Shown here one piece after another: positions 1 to 15,411 of a DNA stretch of 20,000 nt. The DNA is from an uncultured virus (IMG/VR IMGVR_UViG_3300034069_001183) (Duplodnaviria > Heunggongvirae > Uroviricota > Caudoviricetes), in IMG/VR virus record IMGVR_UViG_3300034069_001183; one strand, written 5' to 3'. A program made the position numbers and the translations under genes. The notes under the pieces are model-generated. The model ran no database searches, was not told where the DNA came from, and worked only from the letters and a program-made list of their open reading frames with translations. Numbering within the stretch: position 1 is the stretch's first letter; each line of letters opens with the position of its first letter.

Positions 1-935
1 ACATGATTTTCATCCTCCTTCCCAAAGGTCATTAGCTTACTCGCAAAATCTTTAGTTGCATAGTATAGGCATGGGTAATCATCGTGTCCTTTTGCCAAAC
101 GATGCCACTCACTATTAACAGGAAACACCCCTAGATCGTCCCTTAAGTTGATCAGGAAGTATATACTATCATTCTTAGCTGACCCTGTTAATATCTTCTT
201 GTCTTCCGGTGTCATTGATCTAGCAGTACCGTTCTCAAAAACAATACTATTAGCTATCTCACAAGAAAACTGAGAGCTGGATAAGTAGTTATAGTCTGCA
301 TAGAAACACTCTAGTAGGTCTATAGGATACTCAGGGACATTAAACTGAACCTTACCAACCTCTCCGCCGTAATCCAAAGTTACCTCTGCACCTACTATAT
401 TACTATTATCAAATGCAGGATTATAGAACTCATCCGTTTCATCACTATTATCGTTGCCTGTAAATAACCACGACTTACTGTTAAATAGGAAGTTCTTTAA
501 GCTGTCCTTATTGTCAACGATATGATCAAAGATGCAAGTAGATTCATGGTCAATTTCTGGATATCCTCCATCATCGGTCTTACTATTGACCCAAGTGAAT
601 TTAACACCATTAGCACCAGTAAACTTACAAACTAAGTTACTGAGCGTTGATAGCTTTTTGTGAACATCCATATATTTTTGTGCATATGACTTCTCGTTCC
701 ACTTAGTGCTATGATAATAGATACCACAGACATAGAGTAGTTTGTCCTTAATTGAATTCATTGCTTTCCACTCCCATCCAAAACATCTACCAGACTCTAA
801 GACAATATCACCGTCTTCATCCAGGTCTATGTCACTAGATAACTCAATACTCGCTCTATTAATTACAACAGAGTGAGATGAGCTACTGTTTGTTTCTGGG
901 AGGTTAAATCTTTCTACTTTCTTAATTTTTCCCAT
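1..935 (-). CDS. Conserved phage hypothetical protein (ETNSSSxHS-motif family), 3' end runs off the window
   Basis: Absent from the ORF track because it has no stop in the window. Manual translation from ATG at 935 (MGKIKKVERFNLPETNSSSSHSVVI...GYPEIDHES...KNFLFNSKSWLFTGNDNSD) stays open for ~311 codons to the edge. Promoter motif at 962-974 lies upstream. Confidence 0.85.
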   Translation of the reverse strand, partial: MGKIKKVERFNLPETNSSSSHSVVINRASIELSSDIDLDEDGDIVLESGRCFGWEWKAMNSIKDKLLYVCGIYYHSTKWNEKSYAQKYMDVHKKLSTLSNLVCKFTGANGVKFTWVNSKTDDGGYPEIDHESTCIFDHIVDNKDSLKNFLFNSKSWLFTGNDNSDETDEFYNPAFDNSNIVGAEVTLDYGGEVGKVQFNVPEYPIDLLECFYADYNYLSSSQFSCEIANSIVFENGTARSMTPEDKKILTGSAKNDSIYFLINLRDDLGVFPVNSEWHRLAKGHDDYPCLYYATKDFASKLMTFGKEDENH

Positions 936-987
936 AATTTATAATAATTAAATTTATTCATCTACTATTAAGGATTGTAAGGGAGAA

Positions 988-1020
988 TAAAAAAGGTAAG
1001 GACATTAAACTATCCCTACC
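988..1020 (-). terminator. Rho-independent terminator after endonuclease V gene
   Basis: Minus strand GGTAGGGATAG-TTTAA-TGTCCTTACC followed by TTTTTT. Confidence 0.7.
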
Positions 1021-1540
1021 TATATTTCTTTGTTTCCTTGTCAAGTATTTTTAAGAGCTTTGGTATTCTAAACTCCCCCGACATCATCTTAATATTTCCA
1101 GCTGCTACATTATCTGGAAGACCTATACCCTGTACCCATAATGGTTTTTCCGCCGATCCTCTAAGTATGGGCGCACTAATCTCACTCGTCCTACAAAATT
1201 CAGACTTTGCTAGGCCTATTATTTTTAATCCTGGCATGTTCAACTCATCAAACAGTTTCTTCCCTAGGCCATCTTTCTCCGTACCATCATTGAACCTAAG
1301 CCTGAGAAATCCATCCACTATTATCGTCTCTACCTTGTCTAGACTTACTTTCTCTACTAACAGGCCAAGAACACAGGGAAGCTCTCTCTTGTAGAACTCC
1401 CCTGGTATATAGGACGAAAAACTAGTGCAGATACTACTTATTATTTCGGCGGGTTCATCATCTGTCCATCTATTAAACAAGACACCAACAGTTAATGCGA
1501 GGTTGTCTGAATAATAGTAAGTATCTACCGCTAATTTCAT
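1016..1540 (-). CDS. nfi: Endonuclease V (deoxyinosine 3' endonuclease) family protein
   Basis: Motifs LAVDTYY, YIPGEFYKRELP, IIVDG, IIGLAKS and a C-terminal RIPKLLKILD match the short Bacteroidota-type EndoV. Confidence 0.85.
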   Translation of the reverse strand: MKLAVDTYYYSDNLALTVGVLFNRWTDDEPAEIISSICTSFSSYIPGEFYKRELPCVLGLLVEKVSLDKVETIIVDGFLRLRFNDGTEKDGLGKKLFDELNMPGLKIIGLAKSEFCRTSEISAPILRGSAEKPLWVQGIGLPDNVAAGNIKMMSGEFRIPKLLKILDKETKKYR

Positions 1541-2292
1541 ACATCCATTACATCTAAGAACTTAGCCTCTCCAATATAATCGCCAAATACAGTGAGTTTG
1601 TATTCTTTGTCTGACTTATCAAATACAATATTATAATTTACTGTATCATCTTTGTCCAGCTTAAATATAACTCTCCACTCATCACCCTTAACATGATGAA
1701 GCTTAAGACTACTAACCCTACCTACTAAGAACTCACCAGACTCTTTCTTGATTGTTGCCTGAATATTTCTCGAGTAACCTAGTAATTCACCCTGCTTCTT
1801 TGTTTCACTAATATCGGCAAGTGCAGTAAATGGTAGTGTATCCCTCTCAGCATAAAGACGAGACATCCTATCAAACAAGAATGACTCCTCCATCATCTTA
1901 CAGTGAAGGCTAAGTGGCATAAAGCGATTCATACTAGACTGAAGACCTTGACCCATGATATCGAAGCTAAATCCCTCTGGTATAATCTTCTCTGTGTAGA
2001 CCTTATGATCCTCAGCTGTACTCTTTGCGCGCTCTGGAAAATAGTACTCAATCTGGTATGTCATTGTAATAGGGTCATATCCACTAATCTTGTTTATCTT
2101 TACCCTCTCACACTTAGTATCATAACCATCACCACTGCTCTTTTTCTGGTAGTCTACATATACTGCATACTGACCAATGAGCTGTAAAATCTCTGAGCCC
2201 CCTGGAACCCACTTTAGACTACCTGAATTAAAACCATATCTCTCAGTCATTAACTTCAAGTAGTCTTTCTTCTCTTTCTTCTTATCTTCCAT
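1537..2292 (-). CDS. Hypothetical protein
   Basis: 251-aa ORF; stop overlaps the nfi start (ATGA); no motif recognised. Confidence 0.8.
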   Translation of the reverse strand: MEDKKKEKKDYLKLMTERYGFNSGSLKWVPGGSEILQLIGQYAVYVDYQKKSSGDGYDTKCERVKINKISGYDPITMTYQIEYYFPERAKSTAEDHKVYTEKIIPEGFSFDIMGQGLQSSMNRFMPLSLHCKMMEESFLFDRMSRLYAERDTLPFTALADISETKKQGELLGYSRNIQATIKKESGEFLVGRVSSLKLHHVKGDEWRVIFKLDKDDTVNYNIVFDKSDKEYKLTVFGDYIGEAKFLDVMDV

Positions 2293-2306
2293 AATCTTTT
2301 TTATAG

Positions 2307-2702
2307 TTAAATAATACCTTTTTCTACTAACAATCTCTCAACCTCTGTCCAATCGATGAAAGGACGAACGCTAATAGAGAGATCGGTTTTCAATGGAGCA
2401 CCTAAGGCAGCATCGTCAATATAGAGATGTGCAAAAATCTTCCTACTACTTGTCCATCTGTTCTGTGTCAAGTTCTCATTAACACCTACCAATGGAATAC
2501 CTCGCTGCGCAAACCAATCCACAGCTTCCTCTAAGTAGTTTGGATCACCTGGACTTGTTGGCTCTCCTCTCATTGTATAGAGAATAAGCTCATGTCCTGC
2601 CTCAACTAACCTCTTAAGAACTGGCACTGCACCAATATCTTTGCCAATCTCTGGAAATTCATGACTAACAACAGTACCATCAAAATCAATACAAATCTTC
2701 AT
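2307..2702 (-). CDS. HAD-superfamily phosphatase (BT0820-like)
   Basis: HAD motif I ICIDFDGT, motif II LILYTMR, motif III/IV RKIFAHLYIDD. Confidence 0.85.
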   Translation of the reverse strand: MKICIDFDGTVVSHEFPEIGKDIGAVPVLKRLVEAGHELILYTMRGEPTSPGDPNYLEEAVDWFAQRGIPLVGVNENLTQNRWTSSRKIFAHLYIDDAALGAPLKTDLSISVRPFIDWTEVERLLVEKGII

Positions 2703-2938
2703 CGTTTCTTACTTTTTCTTATTAGTCTTTTACAATTCTTACACTTATACGTTGACTTAATCTCATTGCCTGACACTACCTCACTGACAAGCCTAATATC
2801 TCGACTCGGTTTCTTACAGTCTGGACATGCAAGCTCACTATTCTTGTCATCCTCCTTAGAAAATTGTAAGACTAGTGAAACTACAACCACTGCACTAACA
2901 AAAATACCCGCCAGGCAGATTAATAGAATATCCATCAT
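2699..2938 (-). CDS. Small membrane-anchored zinc-ribbon protein
   Basis: N-terminal hydrophobic helix, CPDC...CKNC pair; ATGA overlaps with both neighbours. Confidence 0.7.
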   Translation of the reverse strand: MMDILLICLAGIFVSAVVVVSLVLQFSKEDDKNSELACPDCKKPSRDIRLVSEVVSGNEIKSTYKCKNCKRLIRKSKKR

Positions 2939-3198
2939 TCGCTGTCCTCCTCTTCGTCGTATTCGTATTCTTCATCCTCATCTTCGTTCTCTTCTTCTTC
3001 GTCTAAGTCACCCAAGTTAATAAAATTAAACTTACTACCAAAAAAGATTTCACCGGATTCTGGAAGTTCTGCAACAATAACAGTTCCTCTATCCTCATGC
3101 TCTTCAATACCAGTTACCTTACCAGATACCTAATCATACTTAAATGTTAGGTCTGGTGAAATAGCTACATAGTCTCCTACTTTAAATTCATCTTTCAT
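2935..3198 (-). pseudogene. Small SH3-like protein with acidic tail, interrupted by in-frame TAG at codon 23
   Basis: ATG at 3198 reads MKDEFKVGDYVAISPDLTFKYD*VSGKVTGIEEHEDRGTVIVAELPESGEIFFG...DEEEDSE-TGA. TAG at 3132-3130. Own promoter motif at 3217-3232; stop is coupled to the next start. Confidence 0.75.
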
Positions 3199-3249
3199 AA
3201 TAATACTTTGTTTTAATTACACTGTTAAGGAATACAAGACGGGGGAGTG

Positions 3250-3286
3250 GAAAAAATGAGCAGTACTATATTTCAAGTACTGCCCC
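3250..3286 (-). terminator. Rho-independent terminator closing the non-coding unit
   Basis: Minus strand GGGCAGTACT-TGAAATAT-AGTACTGCTC then ATTTTTT. Confidence 0.75.
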
Positions 3287-3970
3287 TAGAAACACGGCGC
3301 ATTATAAAAATCATTTGAAAAGGGTGGCTCCTATAATTCCCCGTGTGTTTTCTACGTGTGTTAATTTATTTTCTTGTATCTCCATAAAAGTATTTTCTAT
3401 GGTCAATATTATCAACTAGACACCATAACTACTTGGATTCAAACCAAGTTTTACCTGCAACTTAATTGTTACAGCGCTTTAGTCCCATATAAGCTATAGT
3501 CATTGTATACCTCTATCTGACTCTATCGATTATTCTCAAATTTATACTAATTAACTAGTAAGGTCGTGATTGTTCAGTGAAGTTCTTAGGCTCCACATCA
3601 GTAATTGACTATTCAGCCGCATACTGGTTTTAGTTAAACTATGAACTACTACAACCTAACACAAAACGTTAACAATATAAAATTAAGAAGGTTTTGTGTC
3701 TTATAATATGGTTTAAAATTTCTTGTTACACATTAATGCCACTAGTAGTCCTTATAGGTCCCCAGTTTTTCAGCAGAGCATTGCCCCACCTCAAGCATTA
3801 ATTTCTTGTGTCTTAATAATATAAATTTCAGGTTCTTTACGTAGGAATCATGCAAACACTAGAACCGCATTACATTCCATAATACTAATCTAGTCGTCAC
3901 TTAGTAGATCTCCTCACGAAACTAAACATCCACGAAACTTACTACCTCATGACCTGTTTATCCACGTCTC
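3250..3970 (-). ncRNA. Candidate large structured non-coding RNA (~720 nt)
   Basis: No ORF of 60 aa or more on either strand; two tandem promoter motifs upstream (3970-4066), terminator downstream, several stems visible by eye. Confidence 0.45.
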
Positions 3971-4066
3971 CTACATATATAAGAAATCGAGGCCTTTTCA
4001 AACTGCATTAATTTTCGAGGCCTTCATACTTCCTACACTAATAAGAAATCAAGGGGATCTCAAACG
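3970..4066 (-). promoter_or_regulatory. Tandem pair of phage promoter-like motifs
   Basis: Imperfect direct repeat on minus strand: GTTTGAGATCCCCTTGATTTCTTATTAGTGTAGGA and GTTTGAAAAGGCCTCGATTTCTTATATATGTAGGA, ~62 nt apart. Confidence 0.65.
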
Positions 4067-4090
4067 CCCTTATTTCTTAAGGACTACGGC

Positions 4091-4125
4091 AAAAAAAATA
4101 AGCTAAGGTATTACCCCCTAGCTTA
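4091..4125 (-). terminator. Rho-independent terminator
   Basis: Minus strand TAAGCTAGGG-GGTAATA-CCTTAGCTTA then a T-run, overlapping the stop of 4123..4404. Confidence 0.75.
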
Positions 4126-4404
4126 CTTAATATTATCACGTAACCACTTAATTATCTCATCCTTATTATCTACACCTAGTCTTGTCTTGAATAACCTAAC
4201 AACTACCTCATCAAGATCGACACTTAGATTATCTAGTTCACTCTCATCTTCGGCAGTCTTACAGTACCTACAAGAATCACACATTGCCGTATATCTTAGG
4301 TGGGCAGGTATTACATCCCACATACAAGCAAATTCCGGAATCTCAACACTGGCAACCTTTAATTGACTACCACAAACAGGACACTTATACTTTCTCTCTA
4401 TCAT
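4123..4404 (-). CDS. Small zinc-ribbon protein
   Basis: CPVC...CDSC pair; coupled to upstream gene by ATGA overlap. Confidence 0.75.
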   Translation of the reverse strand: MIERKYKCPVCGSQLKVASVEIPEFACMWDVIPAHLRYTAMCDSCRYCKTAEDESELDNLSVDLDEVVVRLFKTRLGVDNKDEIIKWLRDNIK

Positions 4405-5150
4405 AAGGCAAAATAATATGGACTAAACGCACGGACATAATTTTCATCGAGGAGACTGACGCATCTAACCTCCGTAGGACCTATATACTCTGCGTCATGA
4501 TTCGATGTGTGTAAGTGTCCGTGAATATTAAGGTCCGGTTTCATATCTTCTAGTAATGTTCTGATCTCTTTATTACCAACTGAACTGCCTCCCCAATAAA
4601 CATCAGGCTGAAGGACAATATCACTACAACCATAAGGAGCATCATGAGTAATAACAAGAGACTTAACTGTGTAACCATCAAACTCCTTCTCCAGTGCAGA
4701 CTTTGATTTACCTCTTACCTTGTCAAATTCCTCCCTCTGATACTCTGGCGTGTACATAAAAGCCCAATCACCAAAGATCTTACACATAGGAGAACCATAC
4801 ACATACACAAGATGGTTTGGTAGGTCATCGTCAAGTAAGAGAGTACTGGAATTGCATAAATAAGTAGTACGAGGACCTAAAGCACCTACGATTTTATCCA
4901 GACTCTTATTGTACATGTAAAAGTCATGATTTCCCGCCACTAACAATACCTTTTTCTTCACAGGCAGGCTATCAATCCACTCCTGATAATCCTTCTTTAA
5001 CCACTTCTCAACCTTTCTGTCATCTTGTTGAATATTAAGAGGCACTAAGTCACCCGCAATAATAAGATAATCAACCTCCTTATCTAGACTCACCCCAAGA
5101 TCTCCATGTAAGTCTGAGATCGCCGCAAAACTAATATTATTCTTCTTCAT
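4401..5150 (-). CDS. Calcineurin-like metallophosphoesterase
   Basis: Motifs SDLHG, AGD, AGNHD, ITHDAP, HGHLH. Confidence 0.92.
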   Translation of the reverse strand: MKKNNISFAAISDLHGDLGVSLDKEVDYLIIAGDLVPLNIQQDDRKVEKWLKKDYQEWIDSLPVKKKVLLVAGNHDFYMYNKSLDKIVGALGPRTTYLCNSSTLLLDDDLPNHLVYVYGSPMCKIFGDWAFMYTPEYQREEFDKVRGKSKSALEKEFDGYTVKSLVITHDAPYGCSDIVLQPDVYWGGSSVGNKEIRTLLEDMKPDLNIHGHLHTSNHDAEYIGPTEVRCVSLLDENYVRAFSPYYFAL

Positions 5151-5529
5151 CTTCTACTACTCTAACTGGTATATTCTTTTTCCTTGCTATATCAATCATC
5201 ATCTCAGTTCCCTTATTCTCAGCATACGCACTCTTAAAGGCAATCACTGCGTTAGCCGTCTCTGCCATCTGTAAGTTCCTGAGATAACCCGCCTTCTTAC
5301 CATGCTTCTTCCAATCCGCCGGAAATACCTCACACCTAAGACCATACTCGCCGGCAAACTTCTCACCTAGTTTATCAGCACCCTCAGCATGACCAGATAT
5401 GACAACAACCTCTAATGATAAGTCGGACATCTTTTTTCCTAGGTAGTACAGACACTTCTTCTTTAACCGAGCATAATCCGTATAACTCCTACTACCTGCA
5501 ATAATAACTCTAAACTGATTTACTTTCAT
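5137..5529 (-). CDS. SLOG-superfamily protein (DUF2493/YspA-like)
   Basis: RVIIAGSRSY, VISGHAEGAD, ADWKKHGKKAGYLRN, KGTEMMI. Confidence 0.88.
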   Translation of the reverse strand: MKVNQFRVIIAGSRSYTDYARLKKKCLYYLGKKMSDLSLEVVVISGHAEGADKLGEKFAGEYGLRCEVFPADWKKHGKKAGYLRNLQMAETANAVIAFKSAYAENKGTEMMIDIARKKNIPVRVVEDEEE

Positions 5530-5664
5530 CGCAATATATAATGTAATTAATTCTCACACTAATAAGGAACAAGGGACAGGAAGTATGCAAGATTGACAGT
5601 TTTAAATATTCTAGGTTCTAATACTACTTGTCATAATGGAAAAAATTTGTAATGATCTCATCTC

Positions 5665-5724
5665 AAAAGACTTATCTATGATAAGGGGCTTAAGTAAGTC
5701 TATAAAAAGGCCATGCTTAAGCTC
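5665..5724 (+). promoter_or_regulatory. Promoter-like motif plus conserved 5' hairpin (copy 1)
   Basis: AAAAGACTTATCTATG (5665-5680) is identical to 7427-7442; hairpin GGGCTTAAG...CTTAAGCTC at 5686-5724. Confidence 0.65.
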
Positions 5725-5753
5725 AAAATAATTAATAAAAAGAAGAATAATTT

Positions 5754-7018
5754 ATGGTTTACTTTTTGGAAACGCTCGCTGGTGATAGCGTACACGAGCC
5801 GGTTATCGTAGTTAAGATTGGATTCTCTGAGAATTTTAAGAAGAGACTAAAGGATTATAAGTCTACTAATTATATTTTCAGAGTAATGAAAGTTCTATCT
5901 GATAAGAGCTTTGATAGGAAGTGTGAAAAAATACTACATTACTATTTAGACACTCTATTGGTAAGAGATATAAGAATCAGGTTGAAGTTTTTATATTAGA
6001 TGATGAAGTAGAAAAGCTTATAGAAAGTATCAACACTAGGGAAGATATCTTAAGATTGCAGGGAAAATTGAGTGGTAAGAGGCAAAATTTTAATGTTTAC
6101 TTAAGAAAATCAAGTGGTAGGAAACGAGATTTTAATAAACATCTGAAAAGGTATAAAGGAATACTACTTAAGAATTGGAGGTTAATAGAAAAATCTTATA
6201 GTGGGGACCTAGAGGGATTAATAAATCATTTCATTGATTCCGGATTAGATGATATATTTAAGTTCATAAAAGACTATTATAACGTTGACCTCTTAGATTA
6301 TACCGACGACGAAAAGGGACTACTTAACGAATTCTTTGATAAGTACAATAAGATAGAAACAAGGCAGAAAAAGTTGAAGTTCTTGTGCGAAAAACTTCCG
6401 ACTTTTAATGAACTGGAGAGAACTTGCATATTGGAAAGTGTTACAGAGACTCTTTTTCAAGAATACATTGAGATACTAGGTCTTGATGAGTGTAAAGCAC
6501 AGGGATATAATACATCATTTCTAAACAAGAAATTGAATATCGTAGGGTTTGATGAAACTCTGCTAAATGATACTATATACAATGAATTTAAAGTGGGGCA
6601 TTCTTATTCAAACCCTTACATTAAACAGAAGCTAGGTGAGATATATAAGGATAATAATTACAGAGCTACCGCAAAAGCAGTTGATCTGGATAAGTACTTT
6701 GAAACTAAACATGGGAGAGTAGTAAAAGATAAAACAGGTAAGTGGGTAAATGGAATCTGTATACTGAGTAAGAAAACAGATAATGTAGAGTTTGATAAAG
6801 AAAAATTAAAGGATGATATTTATAACGAATTTATAGTAGGTAATTCTTATTCAACCACTTATGTAAAACAGAAACTAGGGAAAATATATAGTCAGAGGAG
6901 TTACAGAACTACTGCAAAATCTGTCGATCTAGATGAGTTCTTTAACACCAAACGTAAGAGTGTTAAAGATGAAACAGGTAAGTGGATAAATGGAATCTGC
7001 ATAGTTAGTAAGAAATAA
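5754..7018 (+). pseudogene. Frameshifted GIY-YIG/T5orf172-like nuclease fused to duplicated C-terminal putative DNA-binding modules
   Basis: ORF 5754..5999 has MVYFLE...VKIGFSENFKKRLKDY...CEKILH. The -1 frame continues HSIGKRYKNQVEVF...EDILRLQ into ORF 6056..7018, with the break near 5945-5955. The C-terminus is homologous to that of 7532..9598. Confidence 0.7.
6548..7015 (+). repeat. Intragenic tandem duplication, 243-nt (81-aa) period
   Basis: FDxxxLxxxIYNEFxVGxSYSxxYxKQKLGxIY...KDxTGKWxNGICIxSKK starts at 6548 and again at 6791; a third copy is at 9371-9595. Confidence 0.9.
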
Positions 7019-7022
7019 ACAT

Positions 7023-7061
7023 AGGGAGTAGGTTAGGCTGTTTGTCCTACTCTTTTTTTTT
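7023..7061 (+). terminator. Rho-independent terminator
   Basis: GGGAGTAGG...CCTACTCT followed by a T-run; similar to 9606-9651. Confidence 0.8.
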
Positions 7062-7082
7062 CACTACGAAGCTCTTAATATT

Positions 7083-7330
7083 ATAGGGTCGGGTAAGCCT
7101 GCAGCTCCCCTCCCCGCCTTCCCGTTGCCACAATATGAACCTCCCTCGTTACCACTCAGGAGAACCCTATTGAACCCGGGGAAGGTATTCACCTTATGTG
7201 GCGTCGCCGGCAGAGCACGGCTCGACGGTCCTAAGGGTAAACTTGAAAATACCCCTGAAGTACATCTGTGGTTAGGATACAGGAAAATACCGAGCGCCAG
7301 CGAAGGGATTTTGTATGAACTCTACAGATG
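7083..7330. other. GC-rich multi-hairpin element (candidate origin/recognition site or structured RNA)
   Basis: Stems ATAGGGT/ACCCTAT (7083-7170), AAGGT/ACCTT (7182-7195), CGTCGCCG/CGG..CGACG (7202-7227), GGGTA/TACCC (7235-7254), CATCTGT/ACAGATG (7263-7330). Confidence 0.55.
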
Positions 7331-7426
7331 AATATAGGGGTGACTATTTCCAAAATCGGCATATATTCTTTACGTACTCTGTCAAAAAATTCAATGAATT
7401 TGGTAAAATTGTAGTAGTGGTGTTCT

Positions 7427-7494
7427 AAAAGACTTATCTATGTAATAGATAGGGGCATTAAGCGGGCCGCTGCCAAAAAAGGCCGCTTAAGCCC
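7427..7494 (+). promoter_or_regulatory. Promoter-like motif plus conserved 5' hairpin (copy 2)
   Basis: AAAAGACTTATCTATG at 7427-7442; hairpin GGGCATTAAGCGG...CCGCTTAAGCCC at 7453-7494. Confidence 0.65.
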
Positions 7495-7531
7495 GGAAAC
7501 ATATTCATTAACATTTTAAAAATAATTTATT

Positions 7532-9598
7532 ATGACAGAAGAAGGAGCAATCGTAGTAGAAGTACCTAAGGGATATAGGTACATCTCAGAAATCCCAGAC
7601 TTTAAAATTAATGATTTCCCACACATCCTGAACAAACAAATACCGGGATGTGGTTTCACAGAGTACTGTATTGACCCTGCTAAAAACAGTGAAGATATAA
7701 TACTATGTAGTCCTAGAAAGATCTTACTAAAAAATAAGTATGATCAACACGTAGGAGATGTATTCTTAGTTGAAAATAAGTATGAACAAGAAACAAGGAC
7801 TGATAAAGACCTTACAAAGATAGAGAAAGAGAGGGGTGGAAGTATCTTTACAGAGGAAAAAGTGCCGACAAAAGAAGAAATTGAACAAGCTGAAAAAGAA
7901 AAGGTAGGTTTCTTCAATGGTCTTAGGGAGGACTTGAAGAAATATATCATAGGCTGTAGATTTCTCAAGAAGCCAGTTAAAATCTTAGTTACCTACGACT
8001 CATTCAGGATTGTCAAGGATATTATTAAGAGCATTGATGAACTTGATGATTTTAGGGTGATCGTAGATGAGTTTCAAAGTATCTTCACAGACAGTAGATT
8101 CAAACCCGACACAGAAATGGTATTCGTTAAGAACCTACAAGAAGTGAAGAAGCTCTGTTATGTAAGTGCAACTCCGATGATGAAAAAGTATTTAAGTCAG
8201 TTGGAGGAATTTAAAGATCTTCCCTACTACGAACTAGATTGGGAAGCGCTTGACCCTGATAGGGTAAGGAAGCCGAAACTTACTCTAAAAGGTATGAAGG
8301 CTATGTATACAGTAGTTGGTCCTATTATTAAAAAATATCTAGAAGGTGATTTTAGCTATAGATTTGTAAAGGGTGCTGGTGGCGGTGAGGTAGTAAAGGT
8401 AGAATCAAAGGAGGTTGTATTCTATGTTAACTCCGTCGCCAATATTACTAACTTAATAAAAAGAGCAAAATTAGGACCTGATCAAGTAAATATCTTAGTA
8501 GCCAATACACAGGATAACGCAAATAAGATAAAGAAAAGGTTAGGTACTAAATATAAGATTGGTACAGTTCCATTAAGGGATGAACCAAGGAAGATGTTTA
8601 CTTTCTGTACCAGGACTGTTTACTTGGGGGCTGACTTTTATTCTGATAATGCACAGACGGTAGTACTTAGTGATGCCAACCTAGAAACCCTTGCAGTTGA
8701 TATTTCTCTAGATCTTCCACAAATTTTAGGTAGGCAAAGGCTTAGAGAAAATCCTTGGAAAGACGAAGCAACTGTTTATTTCAGGCACCTACTGGATAAA
8801 AATAAGATAAACGAAAAAAGTTTTGACGAGAGAATAGACTGGAAGCTTAAGAAGACTGGTAACCTGCTTACTATATTTGACGAGACAAGAAATGTATTGA
8901 AGGGAGATTTATCAGAGGCATACCAAAAAATAGCAAGAACCTTCAATTATAAGGACGATTATGTAGCAGTGAATGTAGAAGAAGATCCAGAAACGGGAGG
9001 TCCAAAACTTATACCTGTTCTAAATAACTTAGTACTGGTATCAGAGAGACGTGCTTTTGATATGCAACAGACAGAGTATGCAGATCGATTTACAGTCTTT
9101 AATGAGGTCGGTAAGGTATCTACTATTGAAGCGATGAGTGATAAAGTATCTGAGTTCTTCGAAGAGTATGACAAGATAGATACTAGGCAGAAGAAGTTAA
9201 AATTCTTGTGCGAAAGTTATAATAATTTTGACAAGAGTGAGTGGAGATATATACTTGACAACTTAACAGAACTTCACTTTCAAGAATATATAGAAGTACT
9301 GGGTCTTGATGAATGTAAGGCGCAGGCATATAATACTTTCCTACTTAATAAAAAACTTGATATCTTGAGTTTTGATAAGAATTCATTAAAAGAAGATATC
9401 TATAATGAATTTAAAGTAGGCCAGTCTTATCCAAACCCATACATTAAACAAAAACTAGGAGAAATATATAACAGGAAAGAATACAGAGCTACACCAAAGA
9501 CTACTGATCTGATTGAGTACTTTGATATAAAACAGAAGAAAATAAAAGATGAAACTGATAAGTGGGTTCATGGTGTTGTAATCATAAGCAAGAAATAA
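7532..9598 (+). CDS. SF2 (DExD/H-like) helicase-fold protein with atypical Walker A and C-terminal putative DNA-binding domain; possible origin-binding protein
   Basis: Motif I-like IPGCGFT, Ia ILCSPRK, II IVDEFQ, III VSATP, V TRTVYLGADF, VI LPQILGRQR. Confidence 0.75.
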   Translation: MTEEGAIVVEVPKGYRYISEIPDFKINDFPHILNKQIPGCGFTEYCIDPAKNSEDIILCSPRKILLKNKYDQHVGDVFLVENKYEQETRTDKDLTKIEKERGGSIFTEEKVPTKEEIEQAEKEKVGFFNGLREDLKKYIIGCRFLKKPVKILVTYDSFRIVKDIIKSIDELDDFRVIVDEFQSIFTDSRFKPDTEMVFVKNLQEVKKLCYVSATPMMKKYLSQLEEFKDLPYYELDWEALDPDRVRKPKLTLKGMKAMYTVVGPIIKKYLEGDFSYRFVKGAGGGEVVKVESKEVVFYVNSVANITNLIKRAKLGPDQVNILVANTQDNANKIKKRLGTKYKIGTVPLRDEPRKMFTFCTRTVYLGADFYSDNAQTVVLSDANLETLAVDISLDLPQILGRQRLRENPWKDEATVYFRHLLDKNKINEKSFDERIDWKLKKTGNLLTIFDETRNVLKGDLSEAYQKIARTFNYKDDYVAVNVEEDPETGGPKLIPVLNNLVLVSERRAFDMQQTEYADRFTVFNEVGKVSTIEAMSDKVSEFFEEYDKIDTRQKKLKFLCESYNNFDKSEWRYILDNLTELHFQEYIEVLGLDECKAQAYNTFLLNKKLDILSFDKNSLKEDIYNEFKVGQSYPNPYIKQKLGEIYNRKEYRATPKTTDLIEYFDIKQKKIKDETDKWVHGVVIISKK

Positions 9599-14894: not shown

Positions 14895-15320
14895 TTATTT
14901 CTTAGCATTCTTCTTTGGTGCAGCCTTCTTTGTTGGTTCTGGCTTTACCTCTTCTTCTTGCTTCTTCTCATCTACCTTCTTTTCAGGTACTTCTTCCACT
15001 ACTACATCCTCTTTCTTAGGCTCTTCAACGACTGGCTTCTCTTCCTTCTTCTCTGGTGCTGTACCTTTGAATCGAATTACAGCCTCATCTAAGCTCTGTA
15101 CTACAAGAGGTGTACATGCTGGAACACCTGCACAAAGATTAAGTTCTGATGGACCTGATACAATCAATGCGATCTCAGTATCAACAAAACTAGTAGAAAT
15201 AAGTTGTAACATTTCTACATTTGGCATAATGTCTTTTGACACTGAATTAGGACCAATCGTAATCCTCTGTGTTGCAAGTGGTAATTCTACCTGTGAGTTC
15301 TTTCCGTTATAAATTCTCAT
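14895..15320 (-). CDS. Hypothetical protein with K/E/P-rich disordered C-terminal tail
   Basis: 141-aa ORF; promoter motif at 15395-15412. Confidence 0.8.
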   Translation of the reverse strand: MRIYNGKNSQVELPLATQRITIGPNSVSKDIMPNVEMLQLISTSFVDTEIALIVSGPSELNLCAGVPACTPLVVQSLDEAVIRFKGTAPEKKEEKPVVEEPKKEDVVVEEVPEKKVDEKKQEEEVKPEPTKKAAPKKNAKK

Positions 15321-15411
15321 GTTTACTAAATAATTTTATAATTAATAACATATATTTCTCTCATTGAGTAAGTTCCTAACACAAAATAGGAATTACTCAC
15401 ATATAAGGAAT

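Follow-up and report, generated by a model that had tools for sequence, protein, structure and literature searches.

A probable gene for a large structured RNA with a tRNA-like module in a fragment of an uncultured jumbo phage

The DNA analysed here (the window) comprises 20,000 nucleotides (nt) of an uncultured virus of the Caudoviricetes (IMG/VR record IMGVR_UViG_3300034069_001183), and the element under study is a segment of its minus strand, positions 3250–3994, referred to as the RNA unit. The genes in the window include those for a DnaB-like helicase, a primase, thymidylate synthase (ThyA), DHFR and a metallophosphoesterase. The contigs of close relatives measure 326–346 kb, and a 29-kb relative (L001) was rated 9% complete by CheckV; therefore, the window is a fragment of a jumbo phage. 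The RNA unit lies in a 924-nt gap (3199–4122) between two minus-strand genes, 2935–3198 and 4123–4404. No other intergenic gap in the window is as long, the remaining ones measuring approximately 224, 513 and 234 nt, and a preliminary description of the locus had rightly singled it out as unusual in a tightly packed genome. No open reading frame (ORF) of at least 60 amino acids (aa) was present in the gap under translation table 11, and reading TAG as Gln, TGA as Trp or TAA as Gln opened no long minus-strand frame in the RNA unit. Stop-codon recoding was thus rejected, and the claimed absence of such ORFs holds under four genetic codes. All features of the unit described below lie on the minus strand.

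The RNA unit was found in 14 records, including the window, which represent five lineages of jumbo phages of approximately 340 kb: the window clade (with L001 and L055–L062), L064, L063, L069 and L066. L001, which is the same record as G001 and G002, is the closest relative, with 96.6% identity over window positions 1–5602. A metagenome scan with the flanking phosphoesterase yielded the eight near-identical contigs L055–L062 together with L064, whose RNA unit is approximately 80% identical to that of the window, and L063, whose phosphoesterase is 62% identical. The layout in L063 is the same, with a gene for a small Zn-ribbon protein followed by 736 ORF-free nt (5044–5779), two promoter copies and a terminator. 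Alignment at these three levels of divergence revealed two entirely unchanged stretches, and a search of IMG/VR with both as DNA patterns identified the further lineages L069 (a complete 353-kb genome with terminal repeats) and L066 (a 218-kb contig). Among the five lineages, the identity of the flanking proteins falls to approximately 60% or less, synteny past the Zn-ribbon gene is lost and the downstream gene is different in each. The RNA would be approximately 720 nt long in the window and approximately 530–730 nt in the relatives. Other pattern matches were rejected, L067, L068, L071, L091 and L094 as chance matches on reading and L072–L083 and L085–L088 because blastn found them similar at the searched word only. 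No DNA similar to the RNA unit was found beside the phosphoesterase genes of L002, L003 and L007–L054 (23–47% identity), and blastn of positions 3150–4200 against 50,697 phage records gave no match; the window helicase is only approximately 24–29% identical to those of cultured phages. In ENA and Logan assemblies, further phosphoesterase relatives (P0002–P0006, 46–61% identity) lie on contigs of up to 391 kb. Among four public sequencing runs compared as contigs, X2 spans the RNA unit as DNA at approximately 97–98% identity, and X4 and X5 contain only pieces of it, of 250–280 nt.

The unit is bounded by putative transcription signals on both sides. Upstream, the Zn-ribbon gene ends in a predicted intrinsic terminator (4086–4128) with a 13-pair stem at 4128–4096 followed by a T run, which is conserved in the relatives and is predicted to insulate the unit from transcription upstream. 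At its other end, the unit has its own predicted intrinsic terminator (3250–3285, stem at 3285–3258), in which a C–G pair is replaced by a compensatory U–A pair in L064; L063 and L069 likewise have a terminator at this end, and L066 has a T run. A terminator scan of positions 2800–4500 gave three sites, compared with 0.6 ± 0.7 in shuffled sequences. Both terminators had been proposed in the preliminary description, as had a tandem phage promoter motif, and the latter was also borne out: GATTTCTTATNNNTGTAGGA occurs in exactly two copies, at 4050–4031 and 3988–3969, against 0.17 expected by chance, and two copies were reached in 4 of 200 shuffles. The first copy (P1, CCCCTT-GATTTCTTATTAGTGTAGGA, 4031–4056) is retained with substitutions in L064. 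The second (P2, GGCCTC-GATTTCTTATATATGTAGGA, 3969–3994) is near-invariant in 11 relatives and is likely the main start of the ~720-nt RNA. The tandem pair is also present in L063, and a P2-type motif heads the RNA unit in L063, L069 and L066; the motif common to the five lineages, TCTTATATATGT plus A or G with CCCYT before it, is present in at least one copy in each. Looser copies (TTCCTTA..AGTGTA) precede other minus-strand genes, near 3233–3214, 5569, 13295, 15412 and 19961, indicating that the motif behaves as a phage promoter motif. Since the copy at 3214–3233 serves as a promoter motif for the downstream 87-aa gene, the RNA unit does not appear to be the leader of that gene. In the complete 353-kb genome G003 (L095–L112), the strict form of the promoter, CCCTTAAAnTCTTATATATGT, occurs only four times, at 67648, 119378, 217977 and 218288, and one of these copies precedes the RNA unit, which may therefore belong to a small special promoter class there.

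The most strongly conserved element of the unit, termed Box A (3805–3834), consists of AACCUGAAAUUUAUAUUAU, a spacer of 0–3 nt and GACACA (AACACA in L066), and its sequence is otherwise invariant in all five lineages. Box A is AT-rich, lies 85–130 nt downstream of the promoter in every lineage and occurs once per genome, including a single copy in each of the 353-kb (L069) and 218-kb (L066) contigs. No match to it was found in 185,579 prokaryote genomes, and the string was not found in the literature searched. A second CA motif, GACACAAAAC (3691–3700), is also conserved as sequence, and each lineage has one to three ACACAAAAC-type motifs beyond Box A (two to four per RNA including that of Box A), sometimes followed by AAC repeats. 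Box A was predicted to be unpaired (0.57–0.82) in four of the five lineages, and the CA motifs were predicted to be unpaired (0.79–0.92) in L063, L064, L066 and L069. Because Box A is identical across strongly diverged phages, its conservation suggests a partner that is itself nearly constant, such as an RNA or protein of the host, or a site recognised at the DNA level. Elsewhere in the window, the leader of gene 14895–15320 (15340–15390, minus strand) contains a hairpin, TTCCTA-TTTTGTG-TTAGGAA, with a loop complementary to the unit's ACACAAAA motif; as a single case, this complementarity may be due to chance.

Nearer the 3′ end, the unit contains a tRNA-like four-way junction with an extended closing stem (3415–3515), which recurs in four lineages. 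The preliminary description had seen no tRNA or tmRNA hallmarks. For tmRNA, nothing was found by ARAGORN at default settings or by Rfam. For tRNA the statement was wrong, since ARAGORN reported a cloverleaf at 3424–3503. The cloverleaf has a 7-base-pair acceptor-like stem, a 4-base-pair D stem with GG in the loop, a 7-base-pair anticodon-like stem and a T arm with a 5-base-pair stem and a 7-nt loop that keeps U54 and A58. When the ARAGORN threshold was lowered to 70%, scattered and inconsistent tRNA and tmRNA calls with unidentified tags appeared, and these were treated as noise.

The pairing of this module is maintained by compensatory change. Among eight distinct close sequences (alignment A6), all 238 cells of the 30 pairs formed standard pairs and no stem change was uncompensated; the three varying positions, in the closing, D and anticodon-like stems, were all compensated. 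In L064, the acceptor stem has lost one nucleotide on each strand, and the helix stays in register. A covariance model of the close clade (R1) matched both L069 (24.9 bits, E = 2.8e-4) and L066 (18.3 bits, E = 0.018) where the module was expected; in these two, the D, anticodon-like and T stems differ in sequence and spacers separate the closing stem from the arms. The acceptor, D, anticodon-like and T arms are kept, and in the joint alignment (A7) 20 of the 30 pairs were changed on both sides while 100% of 285 cells paired, although this alignment was fitted to the model and its pair counts are therefore biased towards the proposed structure. R1 gave no significant match in the distant relatives L007, L010, L012, L049 and L065.

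While the module has the cloverleaf stems of a tRNA, its loops depart from one. In the window, the loop at the anticodon position (CAAUUAAG) has 8 nt; it is expanded to 14 nt in L064 and has 5 nt in both L069 and L066. L057 shows point changes and L061 one extra nucleotide, and a 7-nt anticodon loop with U33 and a readable anticodon was not found in the module. The T loops read UUUGAAU, UGGGAAU or UUGGAAU, so that position 56 is U or G rather than C. The Rfam tRNA model RF00005 (gathering threshold 29 bits) gave no match in 3100–4200 at E ≤ 10; in G003, the same model matched six times, always at 180–214 kb and more than 110 kb from the RNA unit. These loop features indicate that the module mimics the shape of a tRNA and is predicted to be unable to decode.

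The remainder of the RNA is also predicted to be structured. For the minus strand, the folding energy is −191.1 kcal/mol (z = −3.85; none of 20 shuffles was as good), and for the plus strand −127 kcal/mol (z = −1.54); in all five lineages, the sense strand outperforms both its dinucleotide shuffles (z = −3.85 to −9.2) and its own antisense strand. RNAalifold found 7 compensated pairs out of 226. This run and the within-clade pair count of the tRNA-like module are the only tests free of model-fitting bias. A middle domain (3530–3712), in which a long closing helix surrounds a three-hairpin junction including a GAAU-loop hairpin, recurs in three lineages, and its covariance model (R2) matched L063 at 5273–5420 (36.9 bits, E = 1.5e-5). 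In the corresponding alignment (A13), which is model-fitted like A7 and shares its bias, 98.5% of 407 cells at 53 pairs were paired and 12 pairs had changed on both sides; in one hairpin the GAAU loop was retained on a wholly different stem. Model-based alignment was used here because a MAFFT alignment including L063 misplaced the GAAU loop. A spot at approximately 3645–3672 is hypervariable: L061 (5477–5646) and L062 (5475–5644) carry an insertion of 168–170 nt at the equivalent of approximately 3664–3672, which folds at −46.6 kcal/mol and has no second copy among the compared sequences. A small mobile element and an extra RNA domain are both possibilities for this insertion.

Other domains are more local in their conservation. 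The 5′ leader domain (3840–3975), with hairpins inside a long-range closing helix in the RNAalifold prediction, has a lineage-specific sequence; its helix (alignment columns 1–20 with 119–136) shows only one-sided, pairing-preserving changes, and some inner pairs are broken in L064. A hairpin domain, ATTAATGC...GCATTAAT (3732–3802), is present in the window clade and L064 and absent from L063. Two 3′ hairpins lie within 3290–3402, at 3382–3402 and approximately 3290–3350, the second being exchanged for a different hairpin in L064. The preliminary description had listed six stems, three of which failed the comparison with relatives. ACACGG/CCGTGT is the hairpin replaced in L064, ACACAAAAC/GTTTTGTGT has its 3′ arm mutated or deleted in L001, L055, L056 and L064, and GGAAT/ATTCC is broken without compensation in L056, L059, L060 and L061. 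TATGGT/ACCATA faces competing pairings. The stem ATTAATGC/GCATTAAT shows no variation within the close clade, although its entire hairpin is missing in L063, and pairs that never vary speak neither for nor against structure. ACTTGG/CCAAGT proved to be real and covarying, and corresponds to the T arm of the tRNA-like module. The conserved structure looked for among relatives is therefore found, with compensatory changes, in the tRNA-like and middle domains.

The only neighbour that adjoins the RNA unit in every lineage is the upstream gene (4123–4404, minus strand), which encodes a 93-aa Zn-ribbon protein with a CPxCG...CxxC arrangement followed by two C-terminal helices. In each of L064, L063, L069 and L066, the gene directly preceding the unit encodes a homologue, and the proteins share 17–27% identity across lineages. 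Pfam gave no family above cut-off for this protein, with sub-threshold zinc-ribbon matches only; its AlphaFold2 model (predicted local distance difference test score 71.5) had no Foldseek match in the PDB at E ≤ 0.001; a protein atlas returned 'hypothetical protein' clusters only; and a scan of IMG/VR with the protein recovered known contigs and no new family members. The strict linkage suggests that the RNA unit and the Zn-ribbon protein may form a protein–RNA pair.

Coding capacity was assessed in several ways. The RNA units of the window and L001 differ by indels of 1, 2 and 6 nt, which are not confined to multiples of three. A six-frame peptide comparison between lineages returned only peptides that stem from nucleotide conservation in Box A, the second CA motif and the tRNA-like module; they appeared in more than one frame and on either strand. 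A search of the PHROG families with 14 small ORFs gave no match. A 13-codon ATG ORF at approximately 3503 with GAGG upstream corresponds to 46 aa in L001 (7650–7790, plus strand), but in the window it is frameshifted by a 1-nt indel and stopped, and it overlaps the tRNA-like stems; since the indel and the further stop leave 13 codons, the 46-aa ORF of L001 is probably fortuitous. A 37-aa TTG ORF (3742–3855) is intact in the window and L001, but all three differences between the two change an amino acid, and the segment is absent from L063.

Comparison with known RNA families gave no assignment. By cmscan, no Rfam family matched the RNA unit: there was no match at gathering score in the window, none above noise in 3100–4200 at E ≤ 10, and none in L063, L064, L066 and L069 at E ≤ 1. 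In a published collection of 10,006 viral structured-RNA candidates (PMC10690425), six supplementary files contained neither the Box A string nor the three contig identifiers sought; three further supplementary files were outside the search, and the RNA unit or its tRNA-like part may be listed there.

On this comparative evidence, we consider it probable that 3250–3994 is a dedicated gene for a large structured noncoding RNA and that it represents a new modular phage RNA family. The novel large phage RNA put forward in the preliminary description is thus supported, both by the finding of no decayed protein gene and by the compensatory changes among relatives. The predicted architecture comprises a variable 5′ leader, the invariant single-stranded Box A with ACACAAAAC-type motifs, lineage-specific domains and the tRNA-like junction. 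Transcription would start at one or two copies of the compact phage promoter and stop at the unit's own intrinsic terminator. The RNA may then act in trans as a scaffold or decoy, its invariant unpaired motifs binding a highly conserved partner, which could be an RNA or protein of the host, or the Zn-ribbon protein inherited with the RNA. The tRNA mimic may attract enzymes that act on tRNAs, for example RNase P and RNase Z, and could in this way define or stabilise the ends of the RNA, or titrate these enzymes.

Several points weigh against this reading. The proposed transcription, ends and abundance of the RNA are deduced throughout from sequence motifs, and the conservation of Box A could reflect a role of the DNA instead of the RNA. 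For the window sequence itself, pairing is predicted for Box A and for the second CA motif, with non-conserved partners. The tRNA-like module was not found in L063, where the best R1 match (12.8 bits) is on the opposite strand, and the middle domain was not found by R2 at the L069 unit and was weakly matched in L066 (14.4 bits, E = 0.18). In addition, L061 and L062 tolerate a 168-nt insertion within the unit, and A7 and A13 carry the bias noted above. Only five lineages are available, each module resting on one to three divergent sequences.

Among known RNAs, GOLLD and ROOL come closest; such large structured phage RNAs are among the least understood RNA classes, with few families known. The RNA described here resembles them in being several hundred nt long, phage-encoded and heavily structured, and in combining a conserved part with variable parts; a tie to tRNAs is also common to both. 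It differs from GOLLD, and equally from ROOL, in that the Rfam searches above gave no match, and the locus thereby adds a family not in Rfam. In addition, it carries a tRNA mimic with a freely varying 'anticodon' loop instead of a real tRNA, the unit lies far from the tRNA island of G003, and a Zn-ribbon gene is co-inherited. A tRNA mimic under compensatory evolution while its 'anticodon' loop drifts is an unusual feature, as are an invariant motif of approximately 25–30 nt occurring once per ~350-kb genome and the strict linkage to one Zn-ribbon gene. The mascRNA at the 3′ end of MALAT1 is comparable in being a tRNA-like element inside a long noncoding RNA, where it directs end formation. Protein-sponge small RNAs include CrcZ and CrcY, with A-rich 'CA' motifs, and CsrB and RsmZ, with GGA motifs. 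The two to four A/C-rich ACACAAAAC motifs per RNA, predicted to be unpaired in four of five lineages and paired in the window, recall these sponges, but the copies are few and the RNA is larger, phage-encoded and equipped with a tRNA mimic.

A bolder interpretation, which we regard as doubtful, is that the RNA and the Zn-ribbon protein form a new jumbo-phage ribonucleoprotein, or the RNA alone an assembly like those of ROOL and GOLLD, that engages a universal host machine through the non-decoding tRNA mimic and Box A, as a takeover or counter-defence RNA acting on translation. The machine would be the ribosome, or tRNA-processing and repair enzymes. Such engagement would explain the identity of Box A across phages whose proteins share 17–60% identity.

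The main alternative, though in our view unlikely, is that the locus is a transcription-activated replication origin, at which transcripts from the tandem promoters open or prime DNA synthesis at the AT-rich Box A. The RNA structure would then serve primer formation, which is compatible with an additional RNA function. The primary origin of T7 has two tandem promoters followed by an AT-rich stretch, and T4 oriF and oriG R-loops and ColE1 RNA II are transcription-primed origins. The locus resembles these in the tandem promoters of the window clade, L064 and L063, in the AT-rich, invariant, once-per-genome sequence approximately 85–130 nt further on, and in a predicted structured transcript near replication genes, lying as it does in a region of replication and nucleotide metabolism (helicase, primase, ThyA and DHFR in the window). 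It departs from them in its conserved terminator and in covarying helices far from the AT-rich box: each lineage retains a strong terminator (in L066, a T run) where the unit ends, and compensatory changes keep helices several hundred nt downstream of Box A, which a DNA unwinding element does not need. Furthermore, L069 and L066 have a single promoter copy directly before the unit, compared with two in the window clade, L064 and L063. In favour of an origin, the unit lies approximately 1.5 kb from a divergent intergenic region in the window and, in G003 (67.6–68.2 kb), approximately 3–6 kb from both the minimum of the cumulative GC skew and the principal change of gene orientation. However, phage GC skew largely tracks gene orientation, and the skew minimum is therefore weak evidence for an origin. 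The Zn-ribbon protein of L066 scores 22.2 bits against a primase–helicase zinc-binding domain (cut-off 23), but such matches amount to a short CPxCG below cut-off, and many unrelated families score alike. If this explanation were true, the locus would show where replication begins in a clade of uncultured jumbo phages.

A decaying remnant of a phage tRNA cluster, perhaps still transcribed and with its function lost, appears very unlikely. Jumbo phages often carry tRNA islands, the ARAGORN cloverleaf has an abnormal 8-nt anticodon loop, and the distant relative L007 has six genuine tRNA genes approximately 3.4 kb upstream of the same phosphoesterase gene. Decay is nevertheless hard to reconcile with stems in which all changes are compensated, including a matched double deletion, with a four-way junction that persists in L069 and L066 on different stem sequences, and with Box A and CA motifs that are invariant across lineages. 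Moreover, the unit has no match to the Rfam tRNA model at E ≤ 10, and the six real tRNAs of G003 are more than 110 kb distant.

It is highly improbable that the unit serves as the mRNA of one or several very small proteins, for which the ORFs at approximately 3503 and 3742–3855 might be cited, or as an extended regulatory leader or trailer belonging to a neighbouring gene. The lineages have no frame or peptide in common, separate signals are present for the unit (a terminator of its own) and for the next gene (a promoter of its own), and the downstream gene differs from lineage to lineage.

In the window, that downstream gene (2935–3198, minus strand) encodes 87 aa with an acidic tail. Codon 3130–3132 is an in-frame TAG in the window and TGG (Trp) in all nine close relatives (L001 and L055–L062), indicating a nonsense mutation or a sequencing error rather than recoding. 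Its acidic-codon, low-complexity stretch at 2944–3004 (GAA/GAG/GAT repeats) draws public-run contigs of unrelated organisms; public run X8 matched this stretch only, outside the RNA unit.

The distant relative L007, whose phosphoesterase is 43% identical, has its six tRNA genes in a row (features at 1113–1672 and 4391–8180), and nearby ORFs resemble peptidyl-tRNA hydrolase, IF-3 and a YqeY/GatB-type domain, these being candidate names from reading the translations. This type of jumbo phage seems to invest in translation functions.

A Shine-Dalgarno-like tetramer was found upstream of only 5 of 23 genes in the window, and the relatives of ThyA at approximately 46–51% identity come from mixed phyla, with many Bacteroidota in addition to Proteobacteria and Planctomycetota. 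Both are weak hints at a Bacteroidota host and do not name one. The stretch 7001–7500 is ORF-poor and has an unusually high GC content (0.446). The plus-strand genes at 5754 and 7532 share a different upstream element, AAAAGACTTATCTATG...ATAGGGGC/ATAAGGGGC...TTAAG (5640–5700 and 7420–7490), which may be a second promoter or operator class.

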